The notes below the pieces were generated by a model. It was given only the letters and a program-made list of their open reading frames with translations. It was not told where the DNA came from and searched no databases. DNA of 64,000 nt from contig JBBACQ010000002.1 of assembly GCA_041656935.1 (NCBI GenBank), positions 27,603-91,602 of the forward strand. The letters run 5' to 3'. The first letter of the stretch is position 1. Each line of letters begins with the position of its first letter. Positions 8,012 through 49,616 of this stretch are shown one piece after another. This DNA comes from Patescibacteria group bacterium (GTDB taxonomy: Bacteria > Patescibacteriota > Patescibacteriia > Patescibacteriales > UBA12465). The position numbers and the translations under genes are program-made.

Positions 8012-8131
8012 ATTTAATTTTAAGTTTAATAATTTTAATAATAGAAATAGCTTAAATAACGTTTATCTATGTTACTTAAAGATTAGTTAAAGTTTAAAAT
8101 GTTTTTTTAAGATAAGGGCAAAAATGCATTT

Positions 8132-8234
8132 CATATAACGTTCGCTGATATCTGACGTTTTGCCACTTCCTTTAAAAATCAATTTAGTGTGGCAAAATGT
8201 GGCTTTAGCCCTTGCAGATATCAGCTGTTGTGTG
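8132..8234 (-). other. attC-like imperfect-palindrome site, copy 1
   Basis: CATATAAC-GTTC-GCTGATATCTG...CAGATATCAGC-T-GTTGTGTG with inner stem TTTTGCCAC/GTGGCAAAA. Lies directly 3' of the nucleotidyltransferase stop codon. The structured repeat is certain; function as a recombination site is inference. Confidence 0.6.
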
Positions 8235-8287
8235 TCCCGAAGGGTCGGAGCGAAGCGGAGAAGTTGGTTTCTCTGGCGTCGTGATTA

Positions 8288-9058
8288 TTAAGTAGGACTT
8301 TTGATTTTCCAGCCATCAATATTAAATCCTCCCATTTTTTCAAGAACATGATTTGTTGCTATTTTATATTCATTCATCATTTTTGACTTATCTTTTAGGT
8401 TGATGGCTGAGACAATCATTTTAACAAATTTTTCATCTGGGAAATTGCTTACAAGATACTTTTTCTTGTCTTTTTCGTTTACTAGAAAACGTCTTAATTT
8501 ATGAATAGGTATTGAATCAAATTGCAAAAATTTCGCATAAGTTTCAAATAAATCATTCAAACAATTATAGAAAACAAAAAAGAATTCTTCCGACTTTGAA
8601 TCAAAAACTTCTTCTAAATTATCACACATATCCCAAATGTGGTATTTTGCTATTTCAATTTGGATCTTATTTTGCTTCGGATTTTTCTTTTGCAAATACT
8701 TTTTGGAATATTTAACAAGTTCTTTTAATTCGCCTGTTTTATCAAAAAGTATTTTTCCAGTACAGAACATGTGAGCGTTTATCTTTCTTCTTGATTTCAG
8801 ATCTTCTTCCAAGTATTGATGATGTCTTTTTGTTGGATTAGCGAAATATTCGATCAAAATACCATCGATAATTTCATTACCTCTTTCTCTCCAGGAAGTT
8901 TTTGCATCTAAAAGGATATGAATATCAATATCTGAATGATTACTAGGATTTCCAGTGATATAGCTACCGCAAACAATAGCCCCAATTACTTCTTTTTTGT
9001 TTTCCCATTTTTTGAGAAATTTTTGTAGGGCAATTCCCCAGTTTTCTTGTTTTTTCAT
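8288..9058 (-). CDS. nucleotidyltransferase-domain protein (Pol-beta superfamily, KNTase/ANT-like)
   Basis: 256 aa with N-terminal motif GSYITGNPSNHSDIDIHILLD (GS-X-D-X-D) and a helical C-terminal domain. Confidence 0.75.
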   Translation of the reverse strand: MKKQENWGIALQKFLKKWENKKEVIGAIVCGSYITGNPSNHSDIDIHILLDAKTSWRERGNEIIDGILIEYFANPTKRHHQYLEEDLKSRRKINAHMFCTGKILFDKTGELKELVKYSKKYLQKKNPKQNKIQIEIAKYHIWDMCDNLEEVFDSKSEEFFFVFYNCLNDLFETYAKFLQFDSIPIHKLRRFLVNEKDKKKYLVSNFPDEKFVKMIVSAINLKDKSKMMNEYKIATNHVLEKMGGFNIDGWKIKSPT

Positions 9059-9100
9059 AAGTCCTGCTTTTAATAAGATAAAACGTTGTTTTCTATTCTA

Positions 9101-9141
9101 GCCAGAGAAACCAATTACACACAACTGTTTATTATACGAAC
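9101..9141 (-). repeat. 5' boundary of the nucleotidyltransferase module
   Basis: GCCAGAGAAACCAA (9101-9114) is the reverse complement of 8264-8277. CACACAAC (9118-9125) complements GTTGTGTG at 8227-8234. CTGTTTATTATACGAAC (9125-9141) matches 30824-30840 at 16/17 positions. Confidence 0.7.
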
Positions 9142-9238
9142 AATCTCTCCACATTACCCCCCAACCAACCATACCAACCTTACAACAATTCTACCACACC
9201 CCCACAAAAATCTCAACCCCAAAAACCCCTCCCCAATT
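9139..9238. other. 100-nt G-free C/A-rich tract (G-run-rich on the minus strand)
   Basis: No G on the + strand between G9138 and G9239. The minus strand carries GGGG, GGGG, GGGG, GGGGG and GGGGGG runs. Confidence 0.9.
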
Positions 9239-9291
9239 GCCATTTTCAGAAAAATAATATAAACTCTCAACATAAACCTTAACCTAATTTT

Positions 9292-26273: not shown

Positions 26274-27272
26274 ATGAAAAAAACAATTCTTACCGGCGAT
26301 CGTCCTACCGGACAATTACATATCGGTCATTTATTTGGCTCCCTGCTTAATCGAGTTAAATTACAAAAAGAATACCAAACCTATATTATGTTAGCCGATG
26401 TTCAGGCCTTAACTGATAATTTTAATAACCCGGAAAAGGTTAGAACTAATGTTATGGAAGTAGCTATGGATAATTTAGCGGTTGGAATCGACCCTAAACA
26501 TTCAACTATTTTTATTCAATCTCTTATACCGGAAATTGCCGAACTAACTGTATTTTATTCTAATTTAGTAACAATTGCTCGTTTGCAAAGAAATCCAACG
26601 GTTAAAGAAGAAGTCGGCCAAAAACCGGAGCTCTTTAAAGATAGTGTAACCTTTGGATTCTTAGGTTATCCAGTTAGCCAAGCCGCCGATATTACTGCTT
26701 TTGAAGCTGATTTAGTGCCTGTCGGCGAAGACCAATTACCAGTGATAGAACAGACCCGAGAGATTGTTAAAAAATTTAATAATATTTATGGCCAAACCTT
26801 AGTTCTCCCCACAGCTTTAGTCAGCGATTTTGGTCGTGTTAAAGGGTTGGATGGAAATACCAAAATGGGCAAAAGCTTAGATAATGCTATTTTTATAGCC
26901 GACACCCCAGAAATAATTAGAACTAAAGTTAATAAAGCCTTAACTGATTCTCAGAAAGTAAAATTAAATGATAAGGGACGACCAGAAATTTGTACTGTTT
27001 TTTCTTATCATAAAATTTTCAGCCAAACTAATCTAACAACCATTAAACAAGAATGTCAAAATGGAACTCGAGGTTGTTCTCAATGTAAAAAAGAATTAGC
27101 CGAAAATATTATAGAATTTTTAAAACCAATTCAGGAAAAGAGAAAATATTATGAGAAAAGACCGAAGTTGGTGGAGAAAATATTGAAAGATGGAACTAAA
27201 AGAGCCAAAAAGAAAGCCGAAGAAACTTTAAAGAAGGTAAAGAAGAAGATGAAATTAGATTATTTTAAATAG
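26274..27272 (+). CDS. trpS: tryptophan--tRNA ligase
   Basis: 332 aa with GQLHIGHL and KMGKS motifs. Confidence 0.95.
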   Translation: MKKTILTGDRPTGQLHIGHLFGSLLNRVKLQKEYQTYIMLADVQALTDNFNNPEKVRTNVMEVAMDNLAVGIDPKHSTIFIQSLIPEIAELTVFYSNLVTIARLQRNPTVKEEVGQKPELFKDSVTFGFLGYPVSQAADITAFEADLVPVGEDQLPVIEQTREIVKKFNNIYGQTLVLPTALVSDFGRVKGLDGNTKMGKSLDNAIFIADTPEIIRTKVNKALTDSQKVKLNDKGRPEICTVFSYHKIFSQTNLTTIKQECQNGTRGCSQCKKELAENIIEFLKPIQEKRKYYEKRPKLVEKILKDGTKRAKKKAEETLKKVKKKMKLDYFK

Positions 27273-27280
27273 AAAATAAT

Positions 27281-27311
27281 AAAAAATAGAGGTCTAAGGC
27301 CTCTATTTTTT
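27281..27311. terminator. bidirectional terminator
   Basis: AAAAAATAGAGG-TCTAAGG-CCTCTATTTTTT between convergent trpS and the 93-aa gene. Confidence 0.65.
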
Positions 27312-27339
27312 ATTTAAACGAAATTATTTTAATAATAAT

Positions 27340-27621
27340 TTAAGATCTTCTTTCTTCTTGATAGGCCTTATATCTCCTAACGAATTCATCAATATCGTCT
27401 TTGTGGATTTTAACATCACAATAATTTCCTGGGTTTCCTAGAATACGAAGGCCATCGCCCAAATTTGGACAATCACAACTCTCATCACCGAAAGCATAGG
27501 CAACACCATATTGACCTTGTTTTTTTAATATCTGTCTTGAGACATCTCCAAAATTAACAAAACCGTCTTTATCTGCCTCAAATGAAGGTTTTTGTTCAAA
27601 CGATGATTCTTTGGGTCCCAT
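27340..27621 (-). CDS. hypothetical Cys-containing small protein
   Basis: 93-aa ORF with ATG start; no recognised motif. Confidence 0.5.
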   Translation of the reverse strand: MGPKESSFEQKPSFEADKDGFVNFGDVSRQILKKQGQYGVAYAFGDESCDCPNLGDGLRILGNPGNYCDVKIHKDDIDEFVRRYKAYQEERRS

Positions 27622-27714
27622 AGTTTTTAAATTAAATTTAAATTATATAATAAGTATTTTTTATTTTTTTACAAACTTCTTTTTTATCTATGAGTTAAAA
27701 ACTATTAAATATTT

Positions 27715-27802
27715 CACATAACGTTCGTTGATATCTGACGTTCTCCGTAGCGATAGCAGAGGAGAATGTGGCGAAGCCCTTGCAGATATCAGCTGTTATG
27801 TG
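27715..27802 (-). other. attC-like imperfect-palindrome site, copy 2
   Basis: CACATAAC-GTTC-GTTGATATCTG...CAGATATCAGC-T-GTTATGTG with inner stem TTCTCC/GGAGAA. Lies directly 3' of the HD gene stop codon. Confidence 0.6.
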
Positions 27803-27838
27803 CCCCAAAGGGTCGGAGCGATAGCGGAGATGTAAATC

Positions 27839-28423
27839 TTAAACTCCTTTTATTTTTCGTTGGTACTCATCCCAATCGTTTTTCATCTGTTCAAGCTTGG
27901 GTTTACCTAAACGTCGGCTAATATCAAAATTCAACAAATCAAATTTACCAAGCTTCCGTTGAATTTCATCCGTAAGTCCGTTTTTAAAAACCCACTCGAT
28001 CCAGAGCATATACAGTTTTTTATCAAAATACAAAGCGACCGCGTCTGCATCTTTTACAATTTTCATTTCGGTTGAATCACTACTATATGAAATAATATCA
28101 CGAACATGTTTTAATTCATCAATGTCTAGACCAAGACTGTTCAAGAATTCTTGAGATACGGATAAGTTAAAACTTTCGTGGTTTTTATGGAGCGTTTCCG
28201 GATCAGCATGATGGGTCTTGCCAATATCGTGTAGTAATGCACCAATCGCGGCTACGGTTTTATTACACTCAACTTCTTCAGATATTTTCATCACCAGCTC
28301 TTGGACTGTAACGCTATGGTTGTACATAACCGACCAATGATTAAAACTAAAATGCGGGTTCTTTTGAAAAGAACGTTTTACAAATTCTTTTGTTTTTTCA
28401 ACTAAATCGTGTTTATATTCCAT
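27839..28423 (-). CDS. HD-domain phosphohydrolase
   Basis: 194 aa with metal-binding ...GALLHDIGK... HD motif. Confidence 0.75.
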   Translation of the reverse strand: MEYKHDLVEKTKEFVKRSFQKNPHFSFNHWSVMYNHSVTVQELVMKISEEVECNKTVAAIGALLHDIGKTHHADPETLHKNHESFNLSVSQEFLNSLGLDIDELKHVRDIISYSSDSTEMKIVKDADAVALYFDKKLYMLWIEWVFKNGLTDEIQRKLGKFDLLNFDISRRLGKPKLEQMKNDWDEYQRKIKGV

Positions 28424-28450
28424 AAAAATAAAAGGGGTTTAAGATTTATT

Positions 28451-28547
28451 GCACATAACGTTTGCGGATATGAGAAGTTGCGACCGTAGGGAGCAATTTG
28501 GGTGAGCCCCGAGCCGAGGGGCGAACCTCATATCCGCTGTTATACGC
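28451..28547 (-). other. attC-like imperfect-palindrome site, copy 3
   Basis: GCACATAAC-GTTT-GCGGATATGAG...CTCATATCCGC-T-GTTATACGC. The 11-bp stem differs from copies 1 and 2 at three positions, all compensated on the other arm. Confidence 0.6.
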
Positions 28548-28601
28548 CCCGACGACTGAAAGGAGGAGAGCGCAGCGTGGCACGGAGCGAAGCGGAGTGA
28601 G

Positions 28602-28694
28602 TTCAAAAAATATTTTTCGTTCTCATTAATTATGATAGGCTTTCCTCAATTCTTATAAATTTGATTTTTTCCGTTTTGAAAAATGAAAGAGGGG
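28602..28694. repeat. left arm of a long imperfect inverted repeat flanking the rSAM-methyltransferase pair
   Basis: Collinear identical blocks versus the reverse complement of 30727-30813: 17 nt (28602-28618), 13 nt (28632-28644), 14 nt (28657-28670) and 7 nt (28688-28694). Confidence 0.8.
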
Positions 28695-28728
28695 TTAGGG
28701 GTGAATTTCATTTTTCAAATTCATTAAT

Positions 28729-29838
28729 TTAAGGATGTAAATGTTCTACGCAACCTTTATTTCTTGGAATGTGTTTTGCTAAATATTTTGTAGCTTCACA
28801 AAACTCTTTAACTATCCCTAAAAAATTTCCAGTTGAATAATAAGCCAAGCCCGCACAACCTCCACCACAATTTGATCTTATTTCGCAATTTTTGCATTCA
28901 TCAATAAATTTTGTATTTCTTTGCCTTATTCTTGTCATCTTTTCAGGATAATATATAATTTCATTTTTTTCTTTATCATATTTTCCAAAGATAAATTCTG
29001 AAAGTTGCGTTTTTCCTGAATATGCTAAATCACATCCAGAAACATAACCATCAGCAGTAAGTTGAGGCATTGGGATACAAGAACGACACGCGTAATTACA
29101 AGGTTCATCAAAATTTACTGTGAAAAAATTACCATAGTGCATTCCAATTTTTTCAGCATGTTTGTATGCTTTAACAAAATGTTCAGCAAATTCCTTTAAG
29201 TTTATAGGTGTAATTTGTTTTACTCCTGCTTTACCTTCTTGTTTGACGCTTTCAAAAACAGGTTCGGCATAAACCCATTTTATCCCTATTGAATTAAAAT
29301 AATCCAATATTTCAATTTGCTTATTTATGTCTTGGGGCAAGATTGTTGCTCTTGCACCAACAAAAACTCCTTCTTTTTGTAAAAATTTTACATTTCTGAC
29401 GATGGTGTCAGAAGTTTCTTGACCTCCTCTCGCAGGTCTGTTTCTATTTTGAATATAACTTGGTCCATCAATCGAAATCCATACTTCAGCAACATTTTTT
29501 GCAATCCATTTTGCCGTATCTTCTGAAAAAAATCCATTTGTTTGCAATTCTACAAACAAATCTTTTCCTTTAATTTTTTTAGCATATTCTGTAATTGCTT
29601 TTACTAAATCCATTCTTGTGGTTGGTTCTCCAACTCCATAAAATCTAATCATATTATTGCCAACACCAAAAAAGTCTGTTTTATCCCTGAAAAAATCATC
29701 CATACCTTTTTTGGCAAAATCCAAATCAATTGCTTTTTCCTCTCCAACATGTCTTGTGTCATTAACACAATAAACGCAGTTTAGATTGCATTTAGATGTT
29801 ATGAAAAAAGTTATTGTTCTTTTTCTTTCGTGAGCCAT
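28729..29838 (-). CDS. radical SAM enzyme with C-terminal SPASM-type Cys cluster
   Basis: 369 aa with CNLNCVYC (CxxxCxxC), GVGEPT and QTNG motifs, and C-terminal CKNCEIRSNCGGGCAG. Confidence 0.8.
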   Translation of the reverse strand: MAHERKRTITFFITSKCNLNCVYCVNDTRHVGEEKAIDLDFAKKGMDDFFRDKTDFFGVGNNMIRFYGVGEPTTRMDLVKAITEYAKKIKGKDLFVELQTNGFFSEDTAKWIAKNVAEVWISIDGPSYIQNRNRPARGGQETSDTIVRNVKFLQKEGVFVGARATILPQDINKQIEILDYFNSIGIKWVYAEPVFESVKQEGKAGVKQITPINLKEFAEHFVKAYKHAEKIGMHYGNFFTVNFDEPCNYACRSCIPMPQLTADGYVSGCDLAYSGKTQLSEFIFGKYDKEKNEIIYYPEKMTRIRQRNTKFIDECKNCEIRSNCGGGCAGLAYYSTGNFLGIVKEFCEATKYLAKHIPRNKGCVEHLHP

Positions 29839-29839
29839 A

Positions 29840-30649
29840 TTATTTCCTCGCAGTTAAAAAATAATAACCGACATTAGTATAATTTATTTTTTTATTATTT
29901 CCACGCATTAATTCAGGTTTTATATTTTTGAAATTAGAATTTTTTAATTGTTCTAAGATTATTGGTAGGCAAACTTTTAATTCTTCAATTCTCAAAATAT
30001 CCATAAAAGCTGTTTTGATTTGATCAATCACGTCTGCCTCTTGAGGTTTTGGCATTGATAAAATTTGTGCAGAAGCATATTTTAAAATATTTTCAATAAA
30101 TTGTACTTTATTTTTTGGGTTAAAATTTTTATCAAATTCATAATCTGGAATAAATACTTCAGCAACAATTAAAGTACCTCCAACTTTTAGATTATTATAG
30201 ATATTTTTTATTGCTTTTGGTTTGTCAAAAAGATGATGATAAGTAGCTGTTAAAATTACTATATCAAAATAATTTTCTTTCTGAAAAATTTCAGCTGTCC
30301 CATTTAGGATTTTCGCCTTACCTTTTGTTTCTTTGTTTGTCATATCTCTAAAAACTTTTTCAGGTTCAACAACGACATACTCTTGAATATTTTTATTATT
30401 GATAATTTTGCCAGCTAAAATACCTGGTCCAGAGCCATATTCCAAAATTTTGACAGGTCTTTTTTGTTGGTTGATAATTTTTTCAATTCTATCAAACCAC
30501 TCTAAATATAATGGATATTGTTTAACTTGTTCTAAGTATTGTTTTCTTATGGTTGTTGGGTCTGTCACTGAATATCCTTTTTGCAAAGATTCCCCTAATT
30601 CATTTATTGATTTCCAGATTTGGTTTGAATTTTTTTTAATCATATTCAT
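29840..30649 (-). CDS. class I SAM-dependent methyltransferase
   Basis: 269 aa with motif I ILEYGSGPGILA. Its stop codon lies 1 nt from the rSAM start, so the two are probably co-transcribed. Confidence 0.75.
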   Translation of the reverse strand: MNMIKKNSNQIWKSINELGESLQKGYSVTDPTTIRKQYLEQVKQYPLYLEWFDRIEKIINQQKRPVKILEYGSGPGILAGKIINNKNIQEYVVVEPEKVFRDMTNKETKGKAKILNGTAEIFQKENYFDIVILTATYHHLFDKPKAIKNIYNNLKVGGTLIVAEVFIPDYEFDKNFNPKNKVQFIENILKYASAQILSMPKPQEADVIDQIKTAFMDILRIEELKVCLPIILEQLKNSNFKNIKPELMRGNNKKINYTNVGYYFLTARK

Positions 30650-30726
30650 TAAGTATAGTTAAGAATTTAAAAAGTCTTCTAATATAAATCGTTTTCGGAA
30701 CGAAGTGGAGAAAACACCATATTATC

Positions 30727-30813
30727 CCCCTCTATAAATAAAGAAAAAATCAAATTTATTCCCCTTTGAAAGCCTATCATTTCTTATTCTCCGTTAGAAA
30801 AATATTTTTTGAA
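30727..30813. repeat. right arm of the long imperfect inverted repeat
   Basis: Blocks at 30797-30813, 30768-30780, 30744-30757 and 30727-30733 are reverse complements of the left-arm blocks. Confidence 0.8.
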
Positions 30814-30815
30814 TT

Positions 30816-30840
30816 GCATATAACTGGTTATTATACGAAC
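30816..30840 (-). repeat. 5' boundary of the rSAM-methyltransferase module
   Basis: GCATATAAC (30816-30824) complements GTTATACGC at 28539-28547 at 8/9 positions. CTGGTTATTATACGAAC (30824-30840) matches 9125-9141 at 16/17. Confidence 0.7.
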
Positions 30841-30949
30841 TTATTACTTAATAATTCCAAAAATCTTCAAATTATGCGAATAAAAAAATTATTTTTTATT
30901 AAAACCATTATTATTATAACAAGAAATATAACCAAAATCAATTTAAACC

Positions 30950-33160
30950 CTACCCACACTCCTTGTTCGAGCACTTCGGTCCATTTTTATCTTCTATCAT
31001 CAAAGCTCCACATTTATCACATTTCTCCCCTGTCGGTCTAGCAAAATAAGCATTTTTACACTTCGGATAAGCACTACAGGCGTAAAAAACACCCCGACGA
31101 GAAAACTTTTTTACTATTTTTCCCTTGCCACAAAGTGGGCAATCAACCTCTTTTTCAGTCTCGCCATTTTTACTAATATTTTTAAGATTTTTACATTTTG
31201 GATAAGCACTACATCCCAAAAACGGACCAAACTTTCCCACTCTAACTATCATGTCAGCTCCACATTTATCACACTTATCTTTCTTATGTTTTTCTTTCAA
31301 CTCTATCATCTCCGGACTATCTTCTCTTTTCTCCGGTTCACCTTCTTTTTTCAAAGATTTAATATTACGACACTCCGGATAAGCACTACAAGCCAAAAAT
31401 TTTCCGTAACGACCAGTTTTAATAATCATTTTAGCTCCACATTTATCACAAATCTCGTCAGTCTCTTCTTCCGGAACAATATCTTTCCTATCTAACTCTT
31501 CATATTTCTTGGCTAAGTTAGCACTAAAGGGATCCCAAAAACTCTTTATTACTGGAGGCCAATCTTTTTTACCAAGTGAAATCTGATCTAAATCATTCTC
31601 CATATCAGCCGTAAACTTATAATCGATAATTTCTGGAAAATGTTCTACTAACAGATCAACTACTACGAAAGCAATGTCCGTCGGAAATAATTTTTTCTTA
31701 TCATCACGATTAACATAATTTCTATCAATAATAGTTGAAATGGTTGGAGCGTAGGTAGAGGGTCGACCAATACCATTTTTTTCCATTTCTTTAACCAAGC
31801 CAGCATCAGAATATCTAGCCGGTGGCTGAGTAAAATGCTGATCTTTATCTAACTTCACTAAATCCAAGCTATCTTTTGTTTTTAATTCTGGTAATTCATT
31901 TTCGCTAACCACCTCCGGATATATTTCTAAATATCCCTTAAATTTAACTGTTTGACCATTGGCCCTAAACAAAAACTCATTTTTTTGTCCAGCTAAAATA
32001 TCAACCGACACCGTGTCTAAAATAGCCCCGTTCATCTGAGAGGCTAATGCTCTTTGCCAAATTAATTGATAAAGTTTAAATTGATTTTTATCTAATTTGT
32101 TTAAAAATTTTTCTGGCTCCGAAGAAGCTAAAGTTGGTCGAATAGCCTCATGAGCTTCTTGAGCATTTTTACTCTTACCCTTAAAAACTCGGCCACCAGA
32201 CAACAAATACTTTTCACCTAATTTATTTTTAATATAGTTACCAGCTTCATCTCTAAATTTCTGAGCTAAGTTAATTGAATCAGTTCTCATATAAGTAATA
32301 TGCCCCATTTCATATAACTTTTGAGCGACCATCATAGTTTGTTTAGCACTAAAACCTAAACGACGATTAGCTGTTTGTTGCAAAGAGGAAGTAATAAAAG
32401 GTGGCAATGGACTTTTAGTAGTTTCTTTACTTTCAATTTTATCTACCGTCCAATTACTTTTAACCAAAGAATCTAAAATTTCCTGAGCATCATCTTCGGT
32501 TTTAAAGTAAAATTTATCAATTGATTTATTATCAATTTTTAACAATCTAGCTGAAAAATTATTACTATTCTTAGCTAAAATAGCATTTATATCCCAGTAT
32601 TCCTGAGCCACAAAGGCCTTTATCTCTCTTTCCCTCTCTACTATCAATCGGACAGCTACACTTTGAACACGACCAGCTGATAAGCCCTTAGCTACCTTTT
32701 TCCATAAAAAGGGGGACAATTTATAACCAACCAGCCTATCTAAAATTCGGCGAGCCTGCTGAGCGTCAACCATTTTTTGATCAATTTTCCTAGGATTATT
32801 TAAAGCTGATAAAATAGCCTCTTTGGTAATCTCATGAAAGGCAATTCTCTGGGAATTACTATCATTTAGAGACAAAGCTTCAGACAAATGCCAGGCAATG
32901 GCCTCTCCTTCGCGATCTTCATCAGACGCTAAAATAACATTGGTAGCGCTTTTAGCTAACTTTTTTAAATCAGTTACTCTTTTTTTAGCCGTACTGGAAA
33001 CAACATATTTAGGCGCAAAATTATCTTCCAAATCAACTCCTAACTCACTTTTAGGCAAATCTCGAATATGACCAAAAGATGATTCCACTTTATACTCACT
33101 ACCTAAAAACTTAGCGATGGTCTTGGCCTTAGTAGGAGATTCCACTATTATTAAATTCAT
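30950..33160 (-). CDS. topA: DNA topoisomerase I
   Basis: 736 aa with Toprim N-terminus LIIVESPTKAKTI, active-site region ITYMRTDS, and four C-terminal C4 zinc ribbons. Confidence 0.95.
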   Translation of the reverse strand: MNLIIVESPTKAKTIAKFLGSEYKVESSFGHIRDLPKSELGVDLEDNFAPKYVVSSTAKKRVTDLKKLAKSATNVILASDEDREGEAIAWHLSEALSLNDSNSQRIAFHEITKEAILSALNNPRKIDQKMVDAQQARRILDRLVGYKLSPFLWKKVAKGLSAGRVQSVAVRLIVEREREIKAFVAQEYWDINAILAKNSNNFSARLLKIDNKSIDKFYFKTEDDAQEILDSLVKSNWTVDKIESKETTKSPLPPFITSSLQQTANRRLGFSAKQTMMVAQKLYEMGHITYMRTDSINLAQKFRDEAGNYIKNKLGEKYLLSGGRVFKGKSKNAQEAHEAIRPTLASSEPEKFLNKLDKNQFKLYQLIWQRALASQMNGAILDTVSVDILAGQKNEFLFRANGQTVKFKGYLEIYPEVVSENELPELKTKDSLDLVKLDKDQHFTQPPARYSDAGLVKEMEKNGIGRPSTYAPTISTIIDRNYVNRDDKKKLFPTDIAFVVVDLLVEHFPEIIDYKFTADMENDLDQISLGKKDWPPVIKSFWDPFSANLAKKYEELDRKDIVPEEETDEICDKCGAKMIIKTGRYGKFLACSAYPECRNIKSLKKEGEPEKREDSPEMIELKEKHKKDKCDKCGADMIVRVGKFGPFLGCSAYPKCKNLKNISKNGETEKEVDCPLCGKGKIVKKFSRRGVFYACSAYPKCKNAYFARPTGEKCDKCGALMIEDKNGPKCSNKECG

Positions 33161-46780: not shown

Positions 46781-47554
46781 TCAAGAAACTACTTCACGGG
46801 AACGCAAACCATAATCAGAAAAGCCAGGACTACACCGCCCGACACCGAGCCCGCCACCGCTAGAACACCAACGAACACGGGGAACATAGCCATCAGAATA
46901 GCGCGAACCAGTACACAGCGTCCGATTACTGATGTCTAAATGCTTTTTGGTTCTATCAAAATACAGAATTTCTAATAACAATCTTTCCATCAAGGTAATT
47001 CCCTTGTGGTTCATAACCTTCAATTGATCAGCTGGAAAATCTTTGAATTCCTCATCAGCTTCAATGTTTCGGTTAAACAAAACAATATAGTCACCATTTT
47101 TAGCATCTCTATCATTGTGATTCACAGAGGTGTCTAGGTCTTCTTTATGCAAAGAAACCTTAAACTTCAGCCTCATCTCAGCTACAATCTGATTCTTCGT
47201 AAGTCCTTGAGCGACAATGACCGCAAAGTGCTTTCTGGGGTCATAGTGTTCTGGAACCTGCAAATCAGAAAAATCTTTCTCTAGACCGAACCATTTTTTG
47301 TAGATCCTCTGCCAAGTGGATTTAATTTGACGACTATTTTTGTTGTCGTCAAACAAACACTCAGCAAAAGCCTCAATAGCGGGATCTTTTTTACGACCAC
47401 TTTTTATAACCTCAGCTACCTTCTTCGCCAGAATAGGATCAGATCTCAACAAAGAAAGATCGCTCAAAATGATCCCCTGATCTTGCAGAGCTTTTAAGGT
47501 TGCTCCAACCTCGCCATAACTGGCGTTCCATAAACCAGAATTGTCTTTTTTCAT
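46781..47554 (-). CDS. hypothetical protein, paralog A
   Basis: ATG at 47552-47554 preceded by GGAGG. Central 170 aa are near-identical to paralog B; N-terminus and C-terminal tail are divergent. Confidence 0.7.
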   Translation of the reverse strand: MKKDNSGLWNASYGEVGATLKALQDQGIILSDLSLLRSDPILAKKVAEVIKSGRKKDPAIEAFAECLFDDNKNSRQIKSTWQRIYKKWFGLEKDFSDLQVPEHYDPRKHFAVIVAQGLTKNQIVAEMRLKFKVSLHKEDLDTSVNHNDRDAKNGDYIVLFNRNIEADEEFKDFPADQLKVMNHKGITLMERLLLEILYFDRTKKHLDISNRTLCTGSRYSDGYVPRVRWCSSGGGLGVGRCSPGFSDYGLRSREVVS

Positions 47555-47638
47555 GACTTTTCCTCCACATTTTATGCCTTGTCTGATATAAATTACAGAC
47601 TTTGGCGGGTTAATAATAATTTCAAAGAACATATCTCT

Positions 47639-47856: not shown

Positions 47857-48603
47857 TTAGGAAGAAACTACTGCGCGGGAACGCAAAAAGTCACTAGAAC
47901 GGTCAGGATACGACCAAATAACACAAAGCAAGCCATCGCTAGAATTCCAACCGACATCGGGAACACAGCCATCAGAATCGCGCGACCCAGTACACAGCGT
48001 CCAATTACTGATATCCAAATGCTTTTTGGTTCTATCAAAATACAGAATTTCTAATAGCAATCTTTCCAGCAAGGTAATCCCCTTGTGTTCTATCGCCTTT
48101 AGCTGGTTAGCTGAGTAATTTTTGAACTCTTCATCAGCTTCAACATTTTTGTTGAACACAACGATATAGTCGCCATTTTCGGCCTTTCTATCATTGTGAT
48201 TCACAGAGGTGTCTAGGTCTTCTTTATGCAAAGAAACCTTAAACTTCAGCCTCATCTCAGCTACAATCTGATTCTTCGTAAGTCCTTGAGCGACAATGAC
48301 CGCAAAGTGTTTGCGCGGGTCATAATTTTCCGGAACCTGCAGGTCAGAAAAATTTTTCTCTAGACCGAACCATTTCTTGTAGATCCTCTGCCAAGTGGAT
48401 TTAATTTGACGACTGTTTTTGTTGTCGTCAAATTTCTTAGCAAAAATTGTTCCGACCAAATCATAAATCGGATCGGGATTATTAATCAGGTTGCTAACCT
48501 GCCCCGATGAGGGGTTGGCCTTATTAAGGGCTAATTCTATAATTCGCAATAGCTCCATACCTTGTTTGAAGCTTGCTGGACTTTGGAAACTCTTGTTTTC
48601 CAT
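47857..48603 (-). CDS. hypothetical protein, paralog B
   Basis: ATG at 48601-48603 preceded by GGAGG. Shares the core ...DDNKNSRQIKSTWQRIYKKWFGLEK...LCTGSR... with paralog A. Confidence 0.7.
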   Translation of the reverse strand: MENKSFQSPASFKQGMELLRIIELALNKANPSSGQVSNLINNPDPIYDLVGTIFAKKFDDNKNSRQIKSTWQRIYKKWFGLEKNFSDLQVPENYDPRKHFAVIVAQGLTKNQIVAEMRLKFKVSLHKEDLDTSVNHNDRKAENGDYIVVFNKNVEADEEFKNYSANQLKAIEHKGITLLERLLLEILYFDRTKKHLDISNWTLCTGSRDSDGCVPDVGWNSSDGLLCVIWSYPDRSSDFLRSRAVVSS

Positions 48604-48733
48604 TTTTACCTCCATTTTTAAAGGGTTTATAAAAAGAACAAATTTATAAAAAATATTATCATATTTAAATTAATTTGTCAATATAGCATTTTTTTATAAT
48701 CTATACTATTATACTTTTATACCGAGAAAATCT

Positions 48734-48807
48734 GGTCCGATGGTGAAGTGGTTTAACACTACAGTTTGCAAAACTGTCACTCGTGGGTTCGAATCCCACT
48801 CGGACCT
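48734..48807 (+). tRNA. tRNA-Cys (anticodon GCA)
   Basis: Acceptor GGTCCGA/TCGGACC, anticodon stem ACAGT/ACTGT, loop TTGCAAA, T-arm GTGGG-TTCGAAT-CCCAC. Confidence 0.85.
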
Positions 48808-49284
48808 CTGAAAAAAACAACCCAAACTGCTTTGGGTTGTTTTTTTTATATGACAAAAGAGTGGGATGAGAAAGCCGGAGCCCATGTGCACGAAGTGCAC
48901 GGGCGAGGCCGGGTCGGGGCGCTTGTTTTTATCAAGCCGAAGGCGCAGAGAAAAACTTAGCGACCGTGACCGAATCCCACTCGGACCTCTGAAAAAAACA
49001 ACCCAAACTGCTTTGGGTTGTTTTTTTTATAAGACAAGAGAGTGGGATTCGAAAGCCGGAGCCCATGTGCACGAAGTGCACGGGCGAGGCCGGGTCGGGG
49101 CGCTTGTTTTTATCAAGCCGAAGGCGCAGAGAAAAACTTAGCGACCGTGACCGAATCCCACTCGGACCTCTGAAACATAAGAAGCTAACCTGCGTTAGCT
49201 TCTTATGTTTTATATGACAAAAGAGTGGGATTCGAAAGCCCTCCTTCGCCATATTTCATATGGCTTCGGCGGGCAAGCCGGAGC
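48790..49284 (+). repeat. tandem repeat seeded on the tRNA-Cys 3' end (period 181 bp; two full units plus a variant third)
   Basis: CGAATCCCACTCGGACCTCTGAAA occurs at 48790, 48971 and 49152. Units 1 and 2 are near-identical. Unit 3 keeps the ends but has a different terminator hairpin and interior. Confidence 0.9.
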
Positions 49285-49301: not shown

Positions 49302-49616
49302 TTATTTTTTACGAATAGATTCTAAATTAGCTTTTAAATTAACATAAAAATCTGGAGCCTTTATCTTCATCCCTAAGGCGTCAGCTATTCTAGCTAAGAA
49401 ACTCAAACTGGGCAAATCCAAGCCCCTCTCCAATCTAGATATGCTCGATTGTTTAGTGAAAAGTCGCTTAGCTAATTCTTCTTGAGTTAAACCCATCATT
49501 AACCTAGCTTTAATAATGTTTTCCGAAACCTCAAAAACTAAATTAGAATTGTCATAATAATATTTTTTGAAGTCTTCATTTTTAAATAATTCTTTTTTTA
49601 TATTTTTTAAACTCAT
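49302..49616 (-). CDS. XRE-family HTH protein, HigA-like antitoxin
   Basis: 104 aa with HTH ...MGLTQEELAKRLFTKQSSISRLERG... Lies directly downstream of the toxin-like gene. Confidence 0.7.
   Translation of the reverse strand: MSLKNIKKELFKNEDFKKYYYDNSNLVFEVSENIIKARLMMGLTQEELAKRLFTKQSSISRLERGLDLPSLSFLARIADALGMKIKAPDFYVNLKANLESIRKK

Follow-up and report, generated by a model that had tools for sequence, protein, structure and literature searches.

Between trpS and topA in a 64,000-nt stretch of the chromosome of a Patescibacteria group bacterium (hereafter the window), genes for a methyltransferase (MT) and a radical S-adenosylmethionine enzyme (rSAM) are enclosed by a long inverted repeat and followed by a hairpin reminiscent of the attC sites of integrons. 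What kind of element is this, and do the repeat arms belong to the element, to the two genes or to their surroundings? An initial annotation had proposed that the pair travels as one module wrapped in a repeat that prolongs its terminal hairpin. According to the analysis described here, the interval from 30823 down to 28459 on the minus strand is probably one integron-type gene cassette residing in the Patescibacteria chromosome, with the arms being part of the cassette. As proposed, the pair would thereby form a single mobile module, bounded at G/TT crossover points (the slash marks the point of exchange). The implied connection between the arms and this particular cargo was not borne out.

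The arms predicted at 28602-28694 and 30727-30813 were recovered with exactly these coordinates when 28548-28728 was aligned locally to 30650-30823 in reverse complement, 67 of 96 aligned positions (70%) being identical. The alignment score of 33 compares with 13.1 +/- 2.3 (maximum 26) in 2000 dinucleotide-preserving shuffles (z=8.6), and both 17-mers of the repeat are present within the 64 kb only at the two arm positions. The exact identical blocks measure 17, 13, 17 and 7 nt, which corrects the length of the third block, previously given as 14 nt. In the direction of the minus strand, TTATATGCAAT and leader arm A are followed by a short conserved element designated motif B, the MT and rSAM genes, a trailer hairpin, arm A', a GC-rich module and attC (Table 1).

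The R and L boxes of hairpin 28451-28547, its fold as single-stranded DNA (ssDNA) and its membership in a family of 65 sites agree with its initial description as attC-like. On these sequence criteria it is an attC-type site, and the cassette boundaries follow exchange at G/TT. Folding of 28448-28552 as ssDNA yielded z=-3.6 for the plus strand and z=-2.1 for the minus strand. The window holds two related hairpins, 27711-27812 and 8128-8244, and the z values of the three range from -2.1 to -5.7; their R box pairs are, in this order, GTATAAC/GTTATGT, ACATAAC/GTTATGT and ACACAAC/GTTATAT. The family comprises 65 distinct sites in loci from other genomes (designated below by L numbers) with AAC/GTT outer boxes and a variable interior; it was gathered by a core-anchored search, and all members carry the core C(A/T)CCCA(A/T)ATT. 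In an alignment of 31 sites, including the three of the window, compensatory double changes occur in 7 of the 11 pairs of the L stem, with one pair, for example, occurring as CG (9), UA (9), GC (8) and AU (4). The spacers are asymmetric, with 3 versus 6 nt in the window sites, and a 2-nt bulge, AAC-WT-C, is conserved. L131 (about 2790-2930 on the locus's minus strand) has a site of the same family after a 101-aa open reading frame (ORF); the MT-rSAM pair there is encoded on the other strand. The L131 contig also carries a gene for ribosomal protein L3 of 320 aa, a length that we take to indicate an archaeon. L092 (1700-3900) contains a cassette with nearly the same attC 3' half on both sides (...ccacccaaattgctatgcaacttcagatatgccga...), the right-hand R' being replaced by CAGTGTG, which may reflect a duplicated site or an unusual exchange.

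Exchange at G/TT predicts that the bases following GTT at the left end of a cassette pair with the R'' box of the same cassette. Such pairing was seen for the six bases after GTT in 14 of 15 cassettes resolved in other genomes; the mean number of mismatches is 0.2 with the cassette's own R'' as opposed to 2.67 for the right-hand R', figures that are partly biased by the choice of the junctions according to extended pairing. Two cassettes of the window are free of this selection. The second cassette, which encodes an HD-domain protein, opens with TTATGTGC, a perfect complement to the cassette's own R'' (GCACATAA). In the separate nucleotidyltransferase cassette, the left junction GTTGTGTG exactly complements the cassette's own R'' CACACAAC, and the right-hand R' is GTTATATG. 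Likewise, R' of the first attC (GTTATGTGC) and R'' of the next cassette (GCACATAAC) are perfectly complementary.

The MT-rSAM cassette occupies the first position, between its own attC and an attI-like site. On the minus strand from 30899 to 30824 the latter reads TTCGCATAAT, a 31-nt spacer and TTCGTATAATAACCA-G/TT, the second box running into AACCA-G with the crossover G at 30824. The same two boxes at the same 41-nt spacing adjoin a divergent tyrosine recombinase gene in L117, L097, L120, L057, L071 and L073, where the two-box sites lie 70-120 nt from the recombinase start codon. By analogy, 30824-30899 presumably functions as attI. The recombinase of the relatives bears the greatest similarity to VchIntIA and archaeal XerA. 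Its alignment with VchIntIA is broken into two parts that leave out residues about 200-243, and its score of 221-224 bits is below the TIGR02249 cut-off of 265. Among the matches listed, it is encoded in 35 of about 119 leader-bearing loci, and for 23 of 34 such loci the distance between its start codon and motif B is 191-356 nt. In L042 a gene resembling a REP-associated tyrosine transposase (RAYT; 1438-1965) directly follows the IntI/XerA-like recombinase gene.

Excision would bring the two arms to either side of attC and lengthen its stem by about 100 bp. The expectation of the initial annotation that circularised arms would extend the stem far beyond classical size agrees with the in silico fold of the joined cassette ends, with the proviso that the calculation concerns ssDNA folding and not a duplex cruciform. 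In 444 nt of ssDNA, three arm helices are stacked on the attC hairpin; the folding energy of -79.9 kcal/mol contrasts with -44.1 +/- 4.5 for shuffled sequences (z=-7.9) and with -56.5 for the same length in the integrated context. The predicted circle junction of the MT-rSAM cassette would read ...CATATCCGCAAACG/TTATATGCAATTCAAAAAATA, and the predicted empty attI ...TAATAACCAG/TT, followed by another cassette.

That the arms belong to the cassette and not to the two genes became apparent from other genomes. A hidden Markov model of the leader, derived from 108 relatives, matches the window at 30846-30680 (E=2.4e-29). Among the matches listed, motif B is always preceded by about 110 nt of sequence related to arm A, which in the relatives starts directly after an R' box or an attI-type junction. 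After the cargo follow the hairpin with loop TTCACCCCTAACCCCTCT, arm A in reverse complement, R'' and the remainder of attC. In 39 relatives the loop is kept whereas the stem differs and covaries; in the window the loop is found once. The first cargo ORFs of 105 such cassettes fall into at least 56 unrelated clusters, and the trailer arm of the window is 88% identical over 131 nt to that of an unrelated 2-hydroxyacid dehydrogenase cassette in L004. The arms are thus a generic leader/trailer chassis of many unrelated cassettes that is not peculiar to the MT-rSAM cargo. The commonest chassis cargo (L009-L127) is restriction-modification and related defence, the largest clusters among the matches listed being N6/N4 DNA methylase (13 loci), N6_Mtase+HSDR_N (9), HaeIII endonuclease (5), ResIII helicase subunit (5) and GmrSD (3). 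The defence-rich cargo of the sister cassettes is context and not evidence for the function of MT and rSAM.

Leader and trailer are matched within a cassette. Of 89 cases among the matches listed, 28 have an inverted leader copy of at least 30 bits downstream of the cargo, and 3 have one across the upstream site. Leader-trailer pairs of the same cassette, the trailers being picked by the loop motif alone, reach a mean local alignment score of 36.5, compared with 21.6 for pairs across cassettes (permutation p<1e-4), and the cassette's own trailer is the best partner of the leader in 10 of 39 cassettes. In the joint leader-trailer alignment, 47 of 118 columns exhibit at least two paired states. 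The attC between the dehydrogenase and the MT-rSAM cassettes of L004 has differing arm types on its two sides, with the arms of each cassette matching one another, and in the orthologous MT-rSAM cassette of L004 the arms have diverged yet are still complementary at 84 of 111 positions. The arms are therefore intrinsic to the cassette, as their types match within the cassette and not across attC. The initial annotation had conceded that they might instead be independent copies of a dispersed element. They do flank unrelated genes; against independence, they are intrinsic to the cassette, their types agree within it and they are kept in L133 and L004.

The leader contains motif B, which is nearly invariant across at least 119 stretches of species-representative genomes (search pattern GTGTTYTCTCCRCT....T.CGARAACGATTT, one genome per species being scanned). 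These stretches derive mostly from metagenome-assembled genomes (MAGs) of Patescibacteria; some of those listed, several of them short contigs, are labelled DPANN, methanogenic archaea or other bacterial phyla. Leader motif and attC family are both shared by MAGs labelled Patescibacteria and DPANN, for example Woesearchaeota and Nanohalarchaeota. Motif B was considered as a coding upstream ORF with the peptide VFSPLR(Y/S)ENDL, because its variable sites are third codon positions. It is non-coding, however, since a 1-nt insertion in some variants disrupts the frame while the nucleotides after it are preserved, and since positions 12 and 18 covary as a base pair, from G:C to A:T. The motif B core CTCCGCTnCGCTnCG recurs in the GC-rich module, beside R'' of the other two attC sites of the window and in the inner loops of many attC sites. 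In the circular fold the motif in the GC-rich module forms a side branch. On the bottom strand the core reads GC-GNA-GC, which resembles the very stable d(GCGAAGC) mini-hairpin. No Rfam family matched in the region, either at the gathering cut-off or at E<=5, and a scan for promoter and terminator consensus sequences gave counts not above those of shuffled sequences, with no match explaining the leader.

Table 1. Coordinates of the cassette, its parts and neighbouring features in the window
Feature	Position	Strand	Remarks
MT-rSAM cassette, whole	30823 down to 28459	minus	about 2.4 kb, two genes; HD cassette next
attI-like site	30824-30899	minus	two TTCGYATAA boxes 41 nt apart, start to start
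Leader arm A (right arm)	30718-30823, core 30727-30813	minus	opens with TTATATGCAAT directly after the crossover
Motif B	30686-30717	minus	GTGTTTTCTCCACTTCGTTCCGAAAACGATTT, 32 nt; small hairpin GTTTTC/GAAAAC around GC-TNC-GC mini-stem
MT, cargo gene 1	29840-30649	minus	class I SAM-dependent methyltransferase; Methyltransf_23/11/12/25/31 matches
rSAM, cargo gene 2	28729-29838	minus	radical SAM/SPASM enzyme; PF04055; full SPASM domain, no RRE domain
Trailer hairpin	28675-28719	minus	directly after rSAM stop codon; AT-rich 14-bp stem, conserved loop TTCACCCCTAACCCCTCT
Trailer arm A' (left arm)	28602-28694	minus	inverted repeat of arm A
GC-rich module	28548-28601	minus	between trailer arm and attC; motif CTCCGCTTCGCTCCG, which is GGAGCGAAGCGGAG on the plus strand, 28584-28597
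attC of MT-rSAM cassette	28451-28547	minus	R'' GTATAAC (28544-28538), R' GTTATGT (28459-28453)
attC of MT-rSAM cassette, inner parts			L boxes GGATATGAG/CTCATATCC; core CTCACCCAAATT
Second cassette (HD)	27722-28458	minus	HD-domain protein gene 27839-28423, own attC 27711-27812; without leader or trailer arms
93-aa ORF	27340-27621	minus	distal end of variable segment
trpS	26274-27272	plus	convergent with the minus-strand genes of the segment
topA	30950-33160	minus	stop codon at 30950; upstream neighbour of cassette segment
Separate single-cassette site	8139-9140	minus	nucleotidyltransferase gene 8288-9058, attC 8128-8244
attI-like core of nucleotidyltransferase site	9140-9125	minus	TTCGTATAATAAACA-G

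The cargo genes are 1 nt apart, as first annotated, and MT is always upstream of rSAM in the relatives. MT orthologues begin with MIKKNSNQIW, and the true MT start is probably the ATG at 30643. The cysteine motifs noticed initially, CNLNCVYC and CKNCEIRSNCGGGC, are present in rSAM together with further upstream cysteines, and Pfam and NCBIfam support the assignment of the two proteins to the radical SAM/SPASM enzymes and the class I methyltransferases. The rSAM protein aligns over its full length to SPASM families. It could be placed in the SPASM class as suggested at the outset; no curated subfamily cut-off was reached. The best NCBIfam matches, PapB, QhpD and anSME, are all far below their cut-offs (best score 113 versus a cut-off of 340). 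CteB and anSME are its best solved relatives. The match to CteB begins only at CteB residue 98, which reveals that rSAM is devoid of an RRE domain; in its size and the absence of this N-terminal domain rSAM resembles anSME. CteB and anSME share with it the radical SAM core and the full SPASM cysteine set, but in contrast to them the rSAM of the window misses all curated cut-offs widely and is always paired with a methyltransferase. As already noted in the initial annotation, the cassette contains no cargo-specific precursor-peptide ORF: the small ORFs found by scanning the flanks, among which a 33-aa ORF lies at 30679-30780 in the leader, sit in chassis sequence common to unrelated cassettes. 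PADLOC returned generic radical-SAM (viperin) and HD (Cas3/Cas10) similarity and nothing beyond. We infer that the cargo is a two-step tailoring pair that would combine a radical oxidation or cross-link with methylation; no gene for its substrate was identified.

In L133, with an rSAM 88% identical to that of the window, motif B marks one end of the locus and the trailer loop the opposite end. In L004-L006 the pair is 79% identical and forms a single cassette between two other cassettes in a longer array, a second array context for the cassette besides that of the window. Pairs with 65-74% identity (L002, L007, L008, L129, L130, L132) possess neither arms nor hairpin. The joint travel of genes, repeats and hairpin that was first proposed hence extends to the relatives at 79-88% identity and fails at 65-74%; the chassis of the MT-rSAM pair is kept only among close relatives. 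In L129, L130, L132, L007 and L008 the pair adjoins a divergent regulator of the AsnC/TrmB helix-turn-helix (HTH) type, and several of these loci are archaeal-type contexts with genes for eIF2, S6e, S28e and L7Ae. In L002 the pair sits after a tRNA gene. An HD gene follows the pair there too; synteny with the HD cassette of the window was considered and rejected, the two HD proteins being unrelated. The archaeal-type contexts at 65-74% identity suggest that the pair crossed between the domains before it became a cassette. Most likely, an archaeal-type operon was taken up into a cassette without its regulator.

The chromosomal setting is polymorphic. In the sister strain L128, with 96% identity on the flank bearing trpS and 87.5% on that bearing topA, the entire interval 27315-30949 is missing and one unrelated 216-aa gene takes its place, so that the 3.6-kb segment between trpS and topA is strain-specific. 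The 93-aa ORF at the distal end of the segment has no family match in Pfam or NCBIfam and is not followed by an attC. Where the strain-specific segment begins on the left, between trpS and the 93-aa ORF, a 15-bp hairpin with T runs on both sides (27278-27314) probably serves as a terminator for both directions. At the separate cassette site, the second attI-like core (9126-9140) is immediately preceded by a very G/T-rich tract (9141-9240, minus strand; ggggaggggtttttggggttgag...ggttggggggtaatgtggagag), which is situated between ychF and the nucleotidyltransferase cassette. Elsewhere in the window, a 181-nt unit that starts with the tRNA 3' end and contains a strong hairpin is repeated 2.5 times in tandem behind tRNA-Cys (48734-49240), which looks like repeated integration at the tRNA; the gene after these repeats (49302-49616) encodes an HTH regulator of the Cro/C1 type. 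Two paralogous genes at 46781-47632 and 47857-48615 match no Pfam family, share 300 nt at 79% identity, and each precede a hairpin-bearing segment of 61 nt that is 95% identical between the two.

The events that would lead to such a cassette can be formulated as follows. A tyrosine recombinase of the IntI/XerA type, whose gene is present in relatives beside a matching attI and leader, would excise cassettes as circles and insert them by exchange at G/TT of the R box on a folded single strand. The arms would bracket the cargo in the integrated state and flank attC in the circle, where they may stabilise the folded recombinogenic attC; alternatively, they may pair across the cargo on ssDNA and so join the cassette boundaries. 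The leader would in addition supply conserved signals, such as motif B, for the expression or handling of any cargo. As for the MT-rSAM cargo itself, a regulated operon in archaea of the DPANN type is the probable source from which it was taken up.

Several observations weigh against this interpretation, in addition to the selection of junctions mentioned above. No tyrosine recombinase gene was found by tblastn in the 64-kb window. The recombinase of the relatives does not have the integron-integrase-specific insertion that binds extrahelical bases, which renders recombination through folded single strands an assumption. Since it also scores below the integron-integrase cut-off and none is encoded in the window, the platform is integron-like and not a canonical integron. 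Neither a circular form nor an empty site was found; a metagenome scan for the attI core of the window yielded one unrelated chance match. L128 lacks the attI-like site as well as the cassettes, so that the polymorphism reflects turnover of the whole segment and not of single cassettes. The second and third cassettes of the window (HD and nucleotidyltransferase) have no arms, and arms are therefore not needed for residence in an array. Finally, the asymmetry of G.T wobble pairs counted by column (17 versus 12) is not significant and does not separate DNA from RNA pairing.

The last point bears on the explanation that competes best with a cassette in which the arms act as DNA, namely that leader and trailer pair across the cargo in a read-through transcript and provide an RNase III site or a protective stem, like the stems from which 16S and 23S rRNA are processed, the attC fit then being incidental. 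The arms do bracket the integrated cargo and covary, which RNA and DNA explain equally well; a conserved hairpin opens the trailer right after the stop codon; and topA lies upstream in the same direction, which makes read-through transcription possible. However, the complementarity continues unbroken into R''/R' and stops at the crossover, as expected of a DNA recombination substrate, and transition mismatches counted by cell favour bottom-strand G.T by 120 to 52, a preference that by column shrinks to the non-significant values given above. Action of the arms in RNA is therefore considered improbable, though not negligibly so.

Inverted repeats of about 100 nt around passenger genes, with no transposase inside and the same arms around many different cargos, also recall a non-autonomous transposon of the type of a miniature inverted-repeat transposable element or mobile insertion cassette, mobilised by a transposase in trans, with the attC-like hairpin as a neighbour or preferred target; the RAYT-like gene beside the recombinase in one related locus could be cited in its favour. 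Yet there is no target-site duplication, as GCAAT plus the attI-like site lie outside one arm and CTCACTCC plus the GC module outside the other. The arms always abut R' on one side and R'', or the GC module before R'', on the other, the boundary bases obey the G/TT exchange rule, and the constant partner gene at a fixed distance is that of an IntI/XerA-type tyrosine recombinase. Terminal inverted repeats of a transposon are for these reasons very unlikely.

Slightly less likely still is that the pair lies between two copies of a palindromic intergenic repeat that has the hairpins at its centre, each arm then belonging to the neighbouring site and not to the cassette. In arrays with a single arm type, trailer and next leader are indeed complementary around attC, and such an arrangement is possible in some type-2 arrays. 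Against it stand the L004 attC, with a type-1 trailer on one side and a leader of a different type on the other while the arms of each cassette match, the attI-adjacent leaders, which have no upstream partner but do have one after the cargo, and the attC 28451-28547 of the window, which has an arm on one side only. Chance similarity of AT-rich low-complexity intergenic sequence, for which the AT-rich region with its many short inverted matches of 70-80% might be invoked, is refuted by the shuffle test, the uniqueness of the 17-mers and the conservation of the arms in other genomes.

A cassette that includes its arms is thus retained as the explanation of the locus, and its relation to known systems can be considered. 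The reference is provided by the classical integrons, for example the class 1 integrons and the Vibrio chromosomal integron with its 123-126-bp VCR (Vibrio cholerae repeat) sites. As in integron cassettes, an imperfect hairpin follows the cargo (R boxes AAC/GTT, L boxes covarying, interior variable), boundaries lie at G/TT, cassettes with a defence-rich cargo are arrayed head to tail from an attI-like site, and in related genomes a divergent tyrosine recombinase gene lies beside attI. Unlike integron cassettes, those described here carry a conserved, mutually inverted leader and trailer of about 110-130 nt that would extend the attC stem several-fold, the near-invariant motif B and a conserved single-stranded core in attC; the recombinase of the relatives is without the integrase-specific insertion, and the cassette in the window contains two genes in 2.4 kb. 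The pdif modules of Acinetobacter plasmids are genes bracketed by inverted XerC/XerD sites, which are 28-bp duplexes without hairpins, leaders or trailers. They resemble the present system in that cargo lies between inverted recombination sequences and the recombinase is Xer-like rather than of the IntI type; they differ from it in that the boundaries here obey the attC G/TT rule.

The integron properties used for comparison were drawn in part from PMC9024848 and PMC9668308. IntegronFinder defines CALIN as clusters of attC sites lacking an integron integrase (PMC9024848). The attC sites 28451-28547 and 27711-27812, 737 nt apart with no recombinase in the window, correspond to this definition; the locus, whose attC family was gathered by the core-anchored search, differs from a CALIN in that an attI-like site is kept at the head of the array. 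Archaeal integrons extend beyond the classical bacterial hosts, including to Nanoarchaeota/DPANN, and cross-domain movement of cassettes has been proposed (Ghaly et al. 2022, PMC9668308). Similarly, the leader motif and attC family of the window span Patescibacteria and DPANN MAGs. The archaeal integrons were found with the IntI and attC models of IntegronFinder (PMC9668308), whereas the recombinases here fall below the TIGR02249 cut-off. A term search of the text of PMC9668308 disclosed no mention of Patescibacteria, CPR (candidate phyla radiation) or inverted repeats, and literature searches on integrons of CPR/Patescibacteria/DPANN and on extended attC repeats yielded no published description of a leader/trailer cassette design.

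It is conceivable, with somewhat less than even probability, that the chassis cassettes constitute a distinct, hitherto undescribed class of integron-like elements common to Patescibacteria and DPANN, in which the arms and the GC-GNA-GC mini-hairpin are working parts and the chassis is a cross-domain vehicle. Such a class may be characterised by the standard chassis, an attI of two boxes, a long attC whose single-stranded core is invariant and a recombinase that resembles IntI/XerA but is devoid of the insertion, and its arms and mini-hairpin may serve the folding, priming or uptake of ssDNA.

Integrons are the textbook system of gene capture and reshuffling, and their cassettes are thought to hold little beyond an ORF and a short attC. 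Chassis cassettes possess a paired leader and trailer that extend attC, and the recombinase accompanying them does not have the domain to which recognition of attC structure is ascribed. Such cassettes are widespread among the ultra-small bacteria and archaea dominating groundwater. In the organism studied here, a cassette would account for a segment of 3.6 kb between trpS and topA that is specific to the strain. Should the arms prove functional, the concept of the cassette recombination site would change, it would become easier to explain why standard integron finders miss such elements, and the chassis would provide a testable vehicle for the exchange of genes, largely defence genes, between CPR bacteria and DPANN archaea.

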